From a virus (Duplodnaviria; Heunggongvirae; Uroviricota; Caudoviricetes), in the IMG/VR virus record IMGVR_UViG_2698536519_000007, positions 1-15,617 of that record: a DNA stretch of 15,617 bases; one strand, written 5' to 3'. Both the position numbers and the translations under genes were made by a program. A model generated the notes under the pieces. It made no database searches and was not told the origin of the DNA. It worked only from the letters and a program-made list of their open reading frames with translations. This document shows positions 6,016 through 15,617 of this stretch, one piece after another. Positions within the stretch are counted from its first letter, which is position 1. Every line of letters starts with the position of its first letter.

Positions 6016-6336
6016 ATGATAAGTGTTCTGAAGCCGGTGTTAACCCGTAATGCTGCCGGAGAAATGACGGAAGAATGGGTGTCATGCGGGAAAATTCATG
6101 CGGATATCCGTGGCAGGAGCAGCCGGGAGCGGATGCAGTCCGGTGCGGAAATGGCGCAGGCGGAAATCCGCATCTGGGTGCGCGGTCAGTCCGGCCGGGA
6201 AATCACGGCAGCGTCACGACTTCATGTGCTGAGTGGTCCATGGCGTGACCGGATCCTGAACGTTGTCGGGCTGCCCGTGCCGGATGCGACCGGCGGGCGT
6301 CTGGAAATTCTCTGTCGGCTGGGAGGGGAAAAATGA
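6016..6336 (+). CDS. Phage head-tail adaptor / head-tail joining protein (HK97-type family), probably 5'-truncated
   Basis: 106 aa from the first ATG. The in-frame upstream sequence (AISAGRLTQ, 5989-6015) continues the conserved N-terminal motif of this family but has no start codon before it reaches the IS66 terminus at 5988. Stop overlaps the next start (ATGA). Confidence 0.7.
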   Translation: MISVLKPVLTRNAAGEMTEEWVSCGKIHADIRGRSSRERMQSGAEMAQAEIRIWVRGQSGREITAASRLHVLSGPWRDRILNVVGLPVPDATGGRLEILCRLGGEK

Positions 6337-6779
6337 TCGAAACCCTGCTGGATTTTTCGGGGCTGGAGGACATCAGCCGCGATTTGCAGCTTCTGAGTGG
6401 TGCGGAAAATAACCGGGTGCTGCGTGAGGCAACCCGTGCGGGTGCGAATGTGCTGAAAGAAGAAGTGGTGTCACGGGCACCGGTACGCAGGGGAAAACTG
6501 CGCCGCAATGTGGTGGTCCTTTCCCGGCGCTCCCGCGATGGCGGGATGGAATCCGGTGTGCATATCCGGGGTGTTAATCCGGACACCGGTAACAGCGATA
6601 ACACCATGAAGGCGGATAACCCGCGCAATGCTTTCTACTGGCGGTTTGTGGAAATGGGGACCGTGAATATGCCACCGCACCCGTTTGTGCGCCCGGCATT
6701 TGATGTGCGCAGTGAACAGGCGGCACAGGTGGCGATTGCGCGGATGAACCGGGCCATTGATGAGGTACTGAGACGATGA
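6333..6779 (+). CDS. Phage tail-proximal structural protein, HK97 gp10-like family
   Basis: 148 aa ORF, translationally coupled on both sides by ATGA overlaps, located between the head-tail adaptor and tail completion genes. Family assignment is from position and recalled similarity. Confidence 0.65.
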   Translation: MIETLLDFSGLEDISRDLQLLSGAENNRVLREATRAGANVLKEEVVSRAPVRRGKLRRNVVVLSRRSRDGGMESGVHIRGVNPDTGNSDNTMKADNPRNAFYWRFVEMGTVNMPPHPFVRPAFDVRSEQAAQVAIARMNRAIDEVLRR

Positions 6780-7120
6780 CGGAGGCGGATTTGTATCCTC
6801 ATCTGGCGCATCTTGCCGGCGGGCAGGTGTACCCGTATGTGGTCCCCCTGCTGGATGGCAGGCCGTCGGTGGCGCTTCCGTGGGTGGTTTTCAGCCTGAT
6901 TTCATCGGTGTCTGCGGACGTGATGGGCGGGCAGGCGGAGTCCTCAGTGTCGGTGCAGATCGACGTTTATGCCGGGACTGTGACGCAGGCGCGTCAGATA
7001 CGTCAGGACGCCCGTGAAGCCATAATGCTGCTGGCCCCGGGATCCGTCAGTGAAATGCAGGACTATATTCCGGAAAACCGCTGTTACCGTGCAACCCTGG
7101 AGTTTCAGGTCACGGTGTGA
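6776..7120 (+). CDS. Phage tail completion / tail terminator-like protein
   Basis: 114 aa ORF immediately upstream of the major tail protein gene, start overlapping the previous stop. Function inferred from conserved gene order in siphovirus tail modules. Confidence 0.6.
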   Translation: MTEADLYPHLAHLAGGQVYPYVVPLLDGRPSVALPWVVFSLISSVSADVMGGQAESSVSVQIDVYAGTVTQARQIRQDAREAIMLLAPGSVSEMQDYIPENRCYRATLEFQVTV

Positions 7121-7149
7121 CTTTTTCTTTTTTTCTACAAAACCCATAC

Positions 7150-7172
7150 CCCGCCGCGTGCGGGTTTTTTAT
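7150..7172 (+). terminator. Intrinsic terminator-like hairpin plus T-tract just upstream of the major tail protein gene
   Basis: CCCGC (7150-7154), 5-nt loop, GCGGG (7160-7164), followed by TTTTTTATT (7165-7173). The RBS AGGAGG and ATG 7187 follow immediately. Confidence 0.4.
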
Positions 7173-7186
7173 TATCAGGAGGCAGA

Positions 7187-7903
7187 ATGTCTGCTTTGTA
7201 TGAACGCTCACAGCTGACGCAGGTGATGATTTCATCTGCCCCGGCGACTGCTGAAACTATGGATAAGGCGGAATATCTGCGCCTGGACTGCACCATCAAG
7301 GAAGTCCAGTTCACCGCCGGTCAGAAACAGGATATTGATGTGACCACGCTCTGCTCCACAGAGCAGGAGAACATCAACGGTCTGGGGGCGTCGTCTGAGA
7401 TTTCCATGTCGGGTAATTTTTATCTGAATCAGGCCCAGAACGCCCTGCGTGATGCCTATGACAATGACGCGTTGTATGCGTTTAAGGTGCTGTTTCCGTC
7501 CGGTAAGGGCTTTAAGTTCCTGGCGGAAGTGCGTCAGCACACCTGGTCATCCGGTACCAACGGCGTGGTGGCAGCAACGTTTTCACTGCGTATGAAAGGC
7601 AAACCGGTGTCCTTTGTGGTACCGCTGGCGTTTGTGAAAAATCTGGATAAAACACTTACCGTGAATACAGGTGCGCTGCTGACAATGTCAGTCAGTGCCA
7701 ACGGGGGAACGCCGCCGTATAAATACGCCTGGAAGAAGGATGGTCAGCCGGTTGACGGGCAGACGACAGACACCTTCAGTAAGCCAGGTGCGCAGTCCGC
7801 TGATGCGGGGAAATATACCTGCGTGGTGACCGATTCGGCAGAGAAAGCACAGAGTGTGACGTCTGTTGAATGCACCGTGACAGTGAGCGCAGCCGCCGGA
7901 TAA
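7187..7903 (+). CDS. Major tail (tube) protein with C-terminal Ig-like domain
   Basis: 238 aa, strong RBS (CAGGAGG) before ATG 7187. The C-terminal about 85 aa (PPYKYAWKKDGQPV...AGKYTCVVTDS...) looks like an immunoglobulin-like fold, as often appended to siphovirus major tail proteins. Position is upstream of the G/GT chaperone. Confidence 0.85.
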   Translation: MSALYERSQLTQVMISSAPATAETMDKAEYLRLDCTIKEVQFTAGQKQDIDVTTLCSTEQENINGLGASSEISMSGNFYLNQAQNALRDAYDNDALYAFKVLFPSGKGFKFLAEVRQHTWSSGTNGVVAATFSLRMKGKPVSFVVPLAFVKNLDKTLTVNTGALLTMSVSANGGTPPYKYAWKKDGQPVDGQTTDTFSKPGAQSADAGKYTCVVTDSAEKAQSVTSVECTVTVSAAAG

Positions 7904-14251: not shown

Positions 14252-14263
14252 AAGCGAAAAAAT

Positions 14264-14293
14264 CCCGCAGTGCTCACGGACAGGAACTGCGGG
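14264..14293 (-). terminator. Perfect 8-bp hairpin; on the minus strand it is followed by a T-run (terminator-like for leftward transcription)
   Basis: CCCGCAGT (14264-14271), 14-nt loop, ACTGCGGG (14286-14293). The + strand has AAAAAA immediately 5' (14257-14262), which is a T-tract 3' of the hairpin on the minus strand. Confidence 0.35.
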
Positions 14294-14425
14294 AGCGTTA
14301 CGAAGATTGAGTGTAAGGAATTATTCTTATGTCACGACAAAAAACATTAACGCAGAGAAATTATTAGCGCCACAGTCAGTTTGTGAAAATGTGAAGATAT
14401 TCAGAATTTTTATTCAGTCATGATA

Positions 14426-14458
14426 CAGGCATCCTCCGGGATGCCTGTTGTTTTTGTG
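14426..14458 (+). terminator. Rho-independent terminator about 30 nt upstream of J
   Basis: CAGGCATCC (14426-14434), loop TCCG, GGATGCCTG (14439-14447), then TTGTTTTTGTG. Confidence 0.55.
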
Positions 14459-14489
14459 CGTAACAGTTATCACAGTAAAGGGTGAGACA

Positions 14490-15617
14490 ATGGGCAAAGG
14501 TGGCGGCAAGGCGCACACACCGCGCGAGGCGAAGGACAATCTCAAATCCACGCAGATGATGAGCGTGATTGACGCCATTGGTGAAGGGCCGATTGAAGGT
14601 CCGGTGAAGGGGCTGCAGAGTATCCTGGTGAACAAAACCCCGCTGACGGACACGGACGGTAATCCTGTGATACATGGTGTGACCGCGGTCTGGCGCGCCG
14701 GGGAGCAGGAGCAGACACCACCTGAAGGCTTTGAGTCCTCCGGGGCGGAAACCGCACTGGGCGTGGAAGTGACGAAGGCAAAGCCGGTAACGCGCACCAT
14801 TACATCCGCGAACATTGACCGCCTGCGGGTCACCTTCGGGGTGCAGTCACTGTTGGAGACCACCTCAAAGGGCGACCGTAATCCCTCTTCTGTCCGACTG
14901 CTGATTCAGTTGCAGCGTAACGGTAACTGGGTGACGGAAAAGGATGTCACCATTAACGGCAAGACCACCTCACAGTACCTGGCGTCGGTGATTCTGGAGA
15001 ATCTGCCTGAGCGGCCCTTTAACATCCGGATGGTCCGGGAGACAGCGGACAGCACCCCGGACCAGCTGCAGAATAAGACGCTCTGGTCGTCATACACCGA
15101 AATCATCGATGTGAAACAGTGCTACCCGAACACGGCGATTGTGGGGCTGCAGGTGGATGCGGAGCAGTTTGGCGGTCAGCAGATGACGGTGAACTACCAT
15201 ATCCGCGGTCGCATCATCCAGGTACCGTCAAACTATGACCCGGAAAAACGCACGTACAGCGGCATCTGGGACGGCAGCCTGAAACCGGCATACAGCAACA
15301 ACCCGGCCTGGTGCCTGTGGGACATGCTGACTCACCCGCGCTACGGCATGGGAAAACGTCTGGGGGCGGCAGACGTGGACAAATGGGCGCTGTATGCCAT
15401 TGCGCAGTACTGCGACCAGACGGTCCCGGATGGTTTCGGGGGCACAGAGCCGCGGATGACCTTTAATGCGTACCTGTCACAACAGCGTAAGGCGTGGGAC
15501 GTTCTCAGTGATTTCTGCTCGGCGATGCGCTGTATGCCGGTATGGAGCGGCCAGACGCTGACGTTCGTTCAGGACCGCCCGTCGGATGTGGTGTGGCCGT
15601 ACACCAACAGCGATGTG
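14490..15617 (+). CDS. J: Central tail fibre / host specificity protein J, N-terminal part (continues beyond window)
   Basis: ATG 14490, frame open to the window end. N-terminus MGKGGGKAHTPREAKDNLKSTQ...SVIDAIGEGPIEGPV and downstream blocks (NKTLWSSYTEIIDVKQCYPNTA, AWCLWDMLTHPRYGMGKRLG) match lambda J as recalled. Confidence 0.9.
   Translation, partial: MGKGGGKAHTPREAKDNLKSTQMMSVIDAIGEGPIEGPVKGLQSILVNKTPLTDTDGNPVIHGVTAVWRAGEQEQTPPEGFESSGAETALGVEVTKAKPVTRTITSANIDRLRVTFGVQSLLETTSKGDRNPSSVRLLIQLQRNGNWVTEKDVTINGKTTSQYLASVILENLPERPFNIRMVRETADSTPDQLQNKTLWSSYTEIIDVKQCYPNTAIVGLQVDAEQFGGQQMTVNYHIRGRIIQVPSNYDPEKRTYSGIWDGSLKPAYSNNPAWCLWDMLTHPRYGMGKRLGAADVDKWALYAIAQYCDQTVPDGFGGTEPRMTFNAYLSQQRKAWDVLSDFCSAMRCMPVWSGQTLTFVQDRPSDVVWPYTNSDV

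Follow-up and report, generated by a model that had tools for sequence, protein, structure and literature searches.

Do the tail genes of this prophage sequence, HK97-like at one end and lambda-like at the other, record a recent recombination between two phages, and where are the two types joined? The window, i.e. the whole analysed stretch of 15,617 nucleotides from the IMG/VR record IMGVR_UViG_2698536519_000007, carried at 5989-15617 a tail operon with all genes co-oriented on a single strand, as read from the ORF map and Pfam. Very probably it is the tail-morphogenesis operon of a long-tailed, Pankowvirus-like lambdoid prophage of E. coli, with an HK97-type shaft and a lambda-type tip, preserved as an IS-bounded remnant. 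The first-pass annotation had placed the module at 6016-15617; phage DNA already begins at 5989, position 6016 being an internal ATG. Each gene was compared by tblastn to lambda, HK97, N15 and Stx1_132418, assigned to Pfam families and followed in a sliding-window identity plot. This comparison, proposed beforehand with lambda, HK97 and N15-type phages as references, revealed the expected switch within the operon from HK97-like to lambda-like genes. By sequence, the neck, the terminator, the tube, the G/G-T chaperones and the tape measure belonged to the HK97 type, whereas the conical tip with L, K, I and J belonged to the lambda type. The segment from 5989 to about 11706 had an amino acid identity of 46-75% to HK97 (tape measure 52%); the segment 12205-15617, with L, K, I and the N-terminus of J, had 65-93% amino acid and 77-80% nucleotide identity to lambda versus 34-39% amino acid identity to HK97. 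N15 was rejected as a parent: nucleotide similarity was absent, and its tip proteins were only 30-38% identical.

The operon starts with a 5'-truncated head-closure gene of the HK97 gp7/Hc1 type (5989-6336, plus strand; Pfam Phage_HCP, E 7.8e-15), 46% identical to HK97 gp7 and 99% to Stx1_132418. In the alignment with intact copies, the end of an insertion sequence takes the place of the ATG and homology sets in with the second codon, GCA at 5989; the sole remaining ORF runs from the internal ATG at 6016 and encodes 106 amino acids. On the same strand follow a neck or tail-completion protein of the HK97 gp10 family (6333-6779; Pfam HK97-gp10_like, E 1.2e-9; 75% to HK97 gp10) and a tail terminator of the HK97 gp11 type (6776-7120; 48% to HK97), assigned to Tail_completion_gp17, the Pfam family of HK97 gp11 itself. 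None of these three proteins had a match in lambda, and their early assignment to the HK97 family was confirmed. The major tail protein forming the tube (7187-7903, plus strand) was 68% identical to HK97 gp12 and without a tblastn match in lambda, in agreement with the initial statement that it is not V-like. It has a C-terminal Ig-like domain (Ig_3/I-set, residues 149-227), while its tube-family matches were at or under the Pfam cut-offs; lambda V has Phage_TTP_12 and Big_2 instead. From head closure to tube, gene order and Pfam families were identical to those of HK97.

Two chaperone genes, missing from the first-pass annotation, were also HK97-like (63% and 61%). The tail assembly chaperone equivalent to lambda G and HK97 gp13 (7918-8292, plus strand) matched Pfam Phage_TAC_1 over its full length (E 1e-61) and was 63% identical to gp13. 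Near its end, at 8283-8289, the plus strand reads the slippery heptamer A_AAA_AAG, a putative site of programmed -1 frameshifting to a G-T fusion chaperone: the zero frame AGA AAA AAG TAG terminates, and after a -1 slip translation would continue with GTA GCC into the T ORF. This T-like extension in the -1 frame (8289-8597, plus strand; Pfam Phage_tail_T, E 4.8e-19) was 61% identical to the C-terminal part of HK97 gp14, which is annotated as a -1 frameshift product; as a stand-alone ORF it begins 27 nt downstream, at ATG 8316. The operon therefore probably yields a G/G-T chaperone pair by programmed -1 frameshifting, as the heptamer and its reading frames suggest. The likeness to HK97 (gp7, gp10, gp11, gp12, gp13/14 and gp16) thus comprises Pfam families, order and this chaperone arrangement, at 46-75% amino acid identity. 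The HK97 morons gp15 and gp22/gp23 are missing from the window, and lambda FII, Z, U, V, G and T had no detectable sequence match in it.

The tape measure protein (8645-11887, plus strand) comprises 1080 amino acids, compared to 1089 in HK97, and is of the HK97 gp16 type except for its last 45-60 residues or so. Its three domains, TMP_3, Phage_HK97_TLTM and Tape_meas_lam_C, are found in gp16 too, at corresponding positions. Since Tape_meas_lam_C is also part of the HK97 protein, it marks no joint, and a lambda-type C-terminal domain was discarded as a marker of mosaicism. Identity to HK97, 52% overall, was uneven: in windows of 60 residues it was 0.8-0.92 at the N-terminus, then 0.2-0.77, and 0.25 in the last window (lambda 0.38). 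Residues 301-700 were only 33% identical, residues 701-1020 56% identical to HK97 versus 25% to lambda H. Nucleotide similarity to HK97 stopped within the gene, at 11706. Only the last 45 amino acids or so were closer to lambda, with 42% identity to H 806-850 (E 2e-10) versus 35% to HK97 (E 0.015) and the shared motif NDGTNGQIGP...RDGG; lambda H as a whole aligned at 26% over its C-terminal third only. The claimed closeness of the tape measure C-terminus to lambda hence applies to this short end, whereas about 95% of the protein is HK97-like.

The genes M, L, K, I and J follow directly on the same strand, colinear with lambda 13100-16632, and their domains all scored over the Pfam cut-offs. 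M, the distal tail protein and a divergent tube-tip adapter (11880-12221, plus strand; Phage_min_tail), was weakly conserved: its identity was 45% with M of lambda, 34% with M of HK97, 33% with N15 and 65% with PhiR49_2. The tail tip hub protein L (12221-12919, plus strand; Phage_tail_L, E 1.6e-93) had 78% identity with its lambda counterpart and 38% with that of HK97. The tail tip assembly protein K (12930-13673, plus strand), composed of a JAB/MPN and an NlpC/P60 domain (Prok-JAB, NLPC_P60), was 85-93% identical to lambda and 36% to HK97. For the tail tip protein I (13571-14251, plus strand; Lambda_tail_I), identity was 65% with lambda and 34% with HK97. RefSeq annotators favour a later start of I, near 13670, and both choices occur among the records. 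The central tail fibre J (14490-15617, plus strand; FNIII-A_GpJ, Phage-tail_3) runs past the window end and is cut at residue 376, ahead of the receptor-binding C-terminal domain; the N-terminal part present had 80% identity with J of lambda and 39% with J of HK97. For L, K, I and J, 65-93% identity to lambda thus stands against 34-39% to HK97 or N15. The initial statement that M, L, K, I and J are close to lambda in sequence and order was correct for the order and for L, K, I and the J N-terminus, but not for M. From family membership and the lambda structure, the product would be a lambda-style non-contractile tail with corresponding assembly roles.

The joint itself is sharply defined. Nucleotide similarity sets in at 12204 for lambda, with 77-80% identity from there on, and at 12205 for the Stx2a-converting phage Stx2_95; many Stx2a phage records match the window only from 12205 on. 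A conserved boundary sequence, CAGGTGGTGAACTGATGCAGGATAT (12205-12231), reaches from the end of M to the start of L, and about 25 nt of it over the M stop and L start are identical in the window, Stx2_95 and lambda, whereas the sequences upstream are unrelated. The sharp breakpoint is 12205, at the M/L boundary; a weaker transition lies in the tape measure gene, about 60 codons from its end. L, K, I and J of Stx2_95 are 96-97% identical on the amino acid level and 93% on the nucleotide level. Upstream of the joint Stx2_95 carries lambda-type Z/U/V/G/T/H/M, and its sole nucleotide match to the window there is a 96-nt stretch of 72% identity inside M. Stx2_95 thus shows the reciprocal combination of modules in a natural phage.

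The groupings are also incongruent among the reference phages. The shaft groups the window with HK97 and the tip groups it with lambda, but the tip of HK97 groups with N15 and the shaft of N15 with lambda; therefore all four combinations of shaft and tip exist. For HK97 L, K, I and J, identity is 70-94% with N15 but 31-34% with lambda, and M, L, K, I and J of HK97, of the N15 type, are only 34-39% identical to the window. N15 FII, Z, U, V and H are 59-70% identical to lambda (G 47%). Four reference genomes do not reveal in which direction, or how often, modules were exchanged in the past. The suggestion of modular recombination within the tail operon was sound in that the exchange is real, as the incongruent groupings and Stx2_95 attest; the joint had been misplaced, and the mosaic is common to known phages. 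Mosaicism of this kind, relative to lambda and HK97, is classically described for lambdoid phages.

The module is in fact already known and sequenced, and its mosaicism is textbook lambdoid. At least 80% of it is held by 91 phage records, the top matches being 96.4-97.3% identical on the nucleotide level. Closest are tail modules of long-tailed Stx/EHEC lambdoid phages: Stx1_132418, Stx1a_1602, BP-4795, YYZ-2008 and WGPS2/WGPS8, several of them in the genus Pankowvirus. Stx1, Stx2c and many other EHEC prophages carry the same tail operon type. The first-pass annotation had regarded uniform similarity of all genes to a single known phage as incompatible with its reading, and such uniformity was observed: every protein is 95.6-100% identical to its counterpart in Stx1_132418, with the same genes and order. 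The stretch from the tape measure end over M to the L start is 99.5% identical to BP-4795 and 95.7% to YYZ-2008. Over 5989-11400 the window has about 100% nucleotide identity to a prophage of E. coli S1-IND-01-A; at 11400-15617, roughly the last third, scattered differences leave 92-99% nucleotide identity to the long-tailed Stx/EHEC relatives. The long-tailed EHEC phage phi330 is described as lambda-like only in the components M, L, K, I and J of the tail (PMC12502783).

These relatives bear on the origin of the mosaic. The switch from HK97 to lambda similarity along the operon might suggest a recent recombinant of an HK97-like and a lambda-like phage, unique to the window. This is hardly credible: the full arrangement occurs at 96-100% amino acid identity in Stx1_132418 and also in dozens of Stx1a, Stx2c and Stx2a records, and identity of the window to HK97 and lambda themselves is only 46-85%, so neither is a direct parent. 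PhiR49_2 has the same architecture at about 71% nucleotide identity, which marks an established lineage rather than a fresh recombinant. The roughly even divergence of PhiR49_2, together with M and a tape measure C-terminus that are divergent against every reference, would also fit a third lineage formed by vertical divergence alone, its tip evolving more slowly relative to lambda and its shaft more slowly relative to HK97. A history free of recombination is nevertheless very improbable, given that HK97 has an N15-like tip and N15 a lambda-like shaft, that the shaft proteins of the HK97 and the lambda type belong to different Pfam families, and that similarity between window and Stx2_95 jumps at one position from a single 96-nt match of 72% to 93%. 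Joining of contigs through repeats during assembly, finally, is an unlikely source of the junctions. The left boundary invites this explanation, as a copy of an IS66-family element lies there without a target-site duplication and neither of its junctions occurs in 5,426 complete E. coli genomes; yet only this IS-flanked edge could be affected, the lack of a duplication is also expected from IS-mediated deletions, and many phages and genomes that were sequenced independently are colinear across the joint of HK97-type and lambda-type genes.

We favour an ancestral exchange. The combination very probably arose by recombination, presumably homologous, between lambdoid phages at the conserved boundary of M stop and L start, and the HK97-type shaft with a lambda-type tip is now an established, widely distributed lineage. 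A divergent linker, i.e. the last 45-60 tape measure residues or so and M, connects both halves. In the lambda tail tip, gpI holds a coiled coil of H residues 818-849 inside the lumen, and gpM links the tube to the gpJ/gpL ring (PMC10721106). There the C-terminal helix of the tape measure rests on the gpI tripod in the tip lumen, and the M ring sits between the tube and the L/J ring. Because they bridge tube and tip in lambda, the tape measure end and M must fit both modules. A tentative extension, which we consider possible but doubtful, is that the tape measure end and M constitute a third, separately evolving adapter cassette fitting any shaft to any tip, and that recombination would recur at the sequence of about 25 nt around the M stop and L start. 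It draws support from the low identity of M at this joint whichever phages were paired (33-45% among references, 65% even to PhiR49_2) and from the alignment of lambda H with N15 gp16, which is lost over the last 77 residues or so.

The left edge decides what kind of prophage is present. An IS66-family, ISCro1-like insertion sequence occupies 3290-5988 on the minus strand (Pfam DDE_Tnp_IS66, TnpB_IS66, HTH_Tnp_1) with tnpA (5258-5935), tnpB (4911-5258) and tnpC (3320-4891); its ends read GTAAGCG... at 3290 and ...GGTTAC at 5988, and copies that match it carry the RefSeq name 'IS66-like element ISCro1 family transposase'. The element abuts codon 2 of the first tail gene and replaces the start codon and everything that lies upstream in intact relatives, where the head-closure gene comes after genes for terminase, capsid, portal and connector. 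The 8-mers on its two sides are unlike (aaaaaatc and gcaatatc), so the element has no target-site duplication and a simple insertion at 5988 was ruled out. IS-mediated deletions likewise leave no duplication. As neither IS junction was found in the complete E. coli genomes searched, an assembly join across the IS copy is possible for this boundary. Upstream of the tail genes the window contains the IS66-family element and DNA of a chromosomal island in which remnants of IS110 and IS3 occur; head genes, packaging genes and a late promoter are absent there. Unlike in the Stx/EHEC relatives, the first gene of the operon has lost its start here, along with the DNA before it. Because the IS66 element has replaced these parts, the tail module is a headless prophage remnant, and its expression has probably been lost. 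The tail ORFs downstream of the first gene are all intact and equal in length to those of functional phages; complementation in trans or recombination with other prophages is possible.

Between I and J lies an AT-rich spacer (14252-14489) of 235 nt, compared to 60 nt in lambda. It contains an invariant block of about 40 nt, and both of its strands have terminator-like hairpins. This conserved spacer could encode an unannotated regulatory RNA or an attenuator. No Rfam family reached its gathering threshold anywhere in the window, the spacer gave only a chance-level match (E = 1), and a literature search with its conserved 20-mer found no paper. Anti-sRNAs of prophages have been described downstream of the PR' promoter; the passages searched on prophage sRNAs in that work do not mention the I-J spacer (Tree et al. 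2014).

The importance of the module beyond correct annotation is small, as it is a standard part of EHEC lambdoid prophages. The joint lies beside the parts that bridge tube and tip and is a tidy example of module boundaries that follow structural interfaces. The window represents a headless tail remnant rather than a complete prophage. Remnants of this kind matter when intact prophages are counted, and also as a reservoir of tail genes for recombination.

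The tail operon extends from position 5989 to the window end with all genes co-oriented on the plus strand and combines an HK97-type shaft with a lambda-type tip. The genes for head closure (5989/6016-6336, Pfam Phage_HCP), a gp10-like protein (6333-6779, HK97-gp10_like) and the tail terminator (6776-7120, Tail_completion_gp17) showed 46, 75 and 48 % identity to HK97, followed by the tube protein with a C-terminal Ig-like domain (7187-7903, 68 %), chaperone G (7918-8292, Phage_TAC_1, 63 %) and the T extension (8316-8597, Phage_tail_T, 61 %), to which a -1 slip on A_AAA_AAG (8283-8289) would give access. 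None of these had a match in lambda. The first-pass annotation had placed the first three genes in the HK97 family and considered the major tail protein not lambda V-like. The tape measure protein (8645-11887, 1080 aa; TMP_3, Phage_HK97_TLTM and Tape_meas_lam_C) was 52 % identical to HK97 over its full length and 26 % to lambda over residues 733-1080. Identities to HK97 and lambda, respectively, were 34 and 45 % for M (11880-12221, Phage_min_tail), 38 and 78 % for L (12221-12919, Phage_tail_L), 36 and 85-93 % for K (12930-13673, Prok-JAB and NLPC_P60), 34 and 65 % for I (13571-14251, Lambda_tail_I) and 39 and 80 % for the N-terminus of J (FNIII-A_GpJ and Phage-tail_3), which starts at 14490 and is cut by the window end. 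A tip close to lambda was thus present in L, K, I and J (65-93 %), but M reached only 45 %. Nucleotide likeness to HK97 was patchy between 6284 and 11706 and absent beyond; likeness to lambda started at 12204 and continued to the window end with 77-80 %, broken by the I-J spacer. A sliding-window identity plot returned the same segmentation. In lambda (NC_001416, 14133-14335) one nucleotide is missing near K codon 46 relative to window positions 12930-13129, and the first 45 codons, 93 % identical to those of the window, are shifted to another frame; this deletion in the lambda reference accounts for an annotated K of 199 aa, compared to 247 aa and a complete JAB domain in the window.

N15 was close to neither half of the operon. 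The L, K, I and J proteins of HK97 were 77, 94, 70 and 82 % identical to those of N15 and 31-34 % to those of lambda; N15 shared 59-70 % with lambda in FII, Z, U, V and H and 47 % in G. Hence, all four combinations of shaft and tip exist: a lambda shaft with a lambda tip in lambda and the Stx2a phage Stx2_95, a lambda shaft with an N15 tip in N15, an HK97 shaft with an N15 tip in HK97, and an HK97 shaft with a lambda tip in the window and in the ECOR13 phage PhiR49_2, which has the same architecture, diverged to ~71 % nucleotide identity. In every case M was the poorly conserved gene at the joint (33-45 % between references), and the alignment of lambda H with N15 gp16 stopped ~77 residues before the end.

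The joint between HK97-type and lambda-type genes is real and recurrent. Stx2_95 carries a lambda-type Z/U/V/G/T/H/M set; from 12205 onward it was 93 % identical to the window on the nucleotide level, whereas upstream a single match of 96 nt at 72 % was found. In many other Stx2a phage records, the match to the window also begins only at 12205. The first-pass annotation, which had counted the tape measure C-terminus to the lambda side, had misplaced the joint. The sequence CAGGTGGTGAACTGATGCAGGATAT spans the last M codons, the overlapping stop and start and the first L codons. The window, Stx2_95 and lambda all carry it without a difference, and just upstream their sequences are unrelated. These data are consistent with recombination at the conserved M/L gene boundary, which may have been the mechanism.

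The module is already known and has been sequenced many times. Every protein was 95.6-100 % identical to the single phage Stx1_132418; such even likeness to one known phage is the outcome that the first-pass annotation had named as refuting its claim. At least 80 % of the module was present in 91 phage records, the best of them with 96-97 % nucleotide identity. An E. coli S1-IND-01-A prophage matched positions 5989-11400 with ~100 % nucleotide identity; further relatives include BP-4795, YYZ-2008 and the WGPS phages, with YYZ-2008, WGPS6 and WGPS8 assigned to the genus Pankowvirus. Lambdoid mosaicism itself is reportedly a classic finding (of Juhala et al. in 2000). The tail module is an ordinary one whose mosaic nature shows against lambda and HK97; the description as a mosaic was largely correct, its noteworthiness and the position of the joint were not. 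Phages of this kind have been classed as lambda-like long-tailed Stx phages (PMC11333237), and one of them is described as similar to lambda solely in the M, L, K, I and J components of its tail (PMC12502783).

Upstream of the operon, the window consists of chromosomal island DNA (1-3289) and an IS66-family element (3290-5988). The island adjoins nanXY/ythA and recurs with 99.9 % identity in many E. coli genomes, among them that of ATCC 8739. Within it lie an IS110-family ORF for a transposase (1083-1844) and, running up to the start of the IS66 element, the remnant of an IS3 transposase. The IS66-family element carries tnpA (5258-5935), tnpB (4911-5258) and tnpC (3320-4891), identified by Pfam on the minus strand; matching copies are named ISCro1-like in RefSeq. 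In alignments with intact relatives, phage homology starts at codon 2 of the head-closure gene (GCA at 5989), the IS terminus ...GGTTAC replacing ATG and ribosome-binding site. An in-frame TGA lies at 5977, and the sole start left is an internal ATG at 6016, which had been taken as the operon start, the IS truncation being missed. No target-site duplication was present at junctions 3289/3290 and 5988/5989; the flanking 8-mers (aaaaaatc and gcaatatc) are unlike, thus the junction is not a simple insertion. A search of 5,426 complete genomes of E. coli recovered neither junction. The left edge is attributed to an IS-mediated deletion or rearrangement, an assembly join being less likely. The head-closure gene of intact relatives comes after genes for terminase, capsid, portal and connector. 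In the window no such gene, and no head gene at all, lies upstream, which makes the operon the remnant of a prophage. A second E. coli sequence (Z1322HEC0009, 7227-9842) has an IS66-family element inside the same operon, between terminator and major tail gene, hence these elements interrupt the module at more than one site.

The AT-rich I-J spacer (14252-14489) comprises 235 nt, compared to 60 nt in lambda, and was without annotation in all records examined. On the minus strand it contains a stem CCCGCAG/CTGCGGG with variable loop, which would form a hairpin followed by U6. An invariant block of ~40 nt (about 14385-14424) is followed on its 3' side by a plus-strand terminator-like hairpin (14425-14448) with one compensatory C-G/U-A pair. 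No match was obtained in Rfam or the literature. HK97 and N15 have terminators annotated before J; the spacer could be a late-operon attenuator of that type, or a small RNA.

The tape measure C-terminus, claimed to be close to lambda, is for the most part not so. The Pfam lambda C domain is also present in HK97 gp16, and residues 701-1020 were 56 % identical to HK97 versus 25 % to lambda. Residues 301-700 (window 9545-10745) had 33 % identity to HK97 gp16 and 83.5 % to PhiR49_2, and the Phage_HK97_TLTM model scored 302 bits on the window protein versus 118 bits on HK97 gp16; the central third is a further mosaic patch within the gene. Only the final ~45 residues favour lambda (H 806-850, 42 %, E 2e-10; HK97 35 %, E 0.015). 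NDGTNGQIGP and a terminal RDGG..SG motif are common to this end and lambda H; ADGSLGVRAVG, just before it, is shared with HK97. In lambda particles, residues 818-849 of gpH make up a coiled coil that rests on the gpI tripod in the lumen of the tip, and the gpV tube is followed by a ring of gpM and then by one of gpJ and gpL (PMC10721106). By analogy, we infer that the segment switching to lambda type would be the part docking into the lambda-type tip. Given the lambda virion, so small a switch at the end of the tape measure would be structurally sensible.
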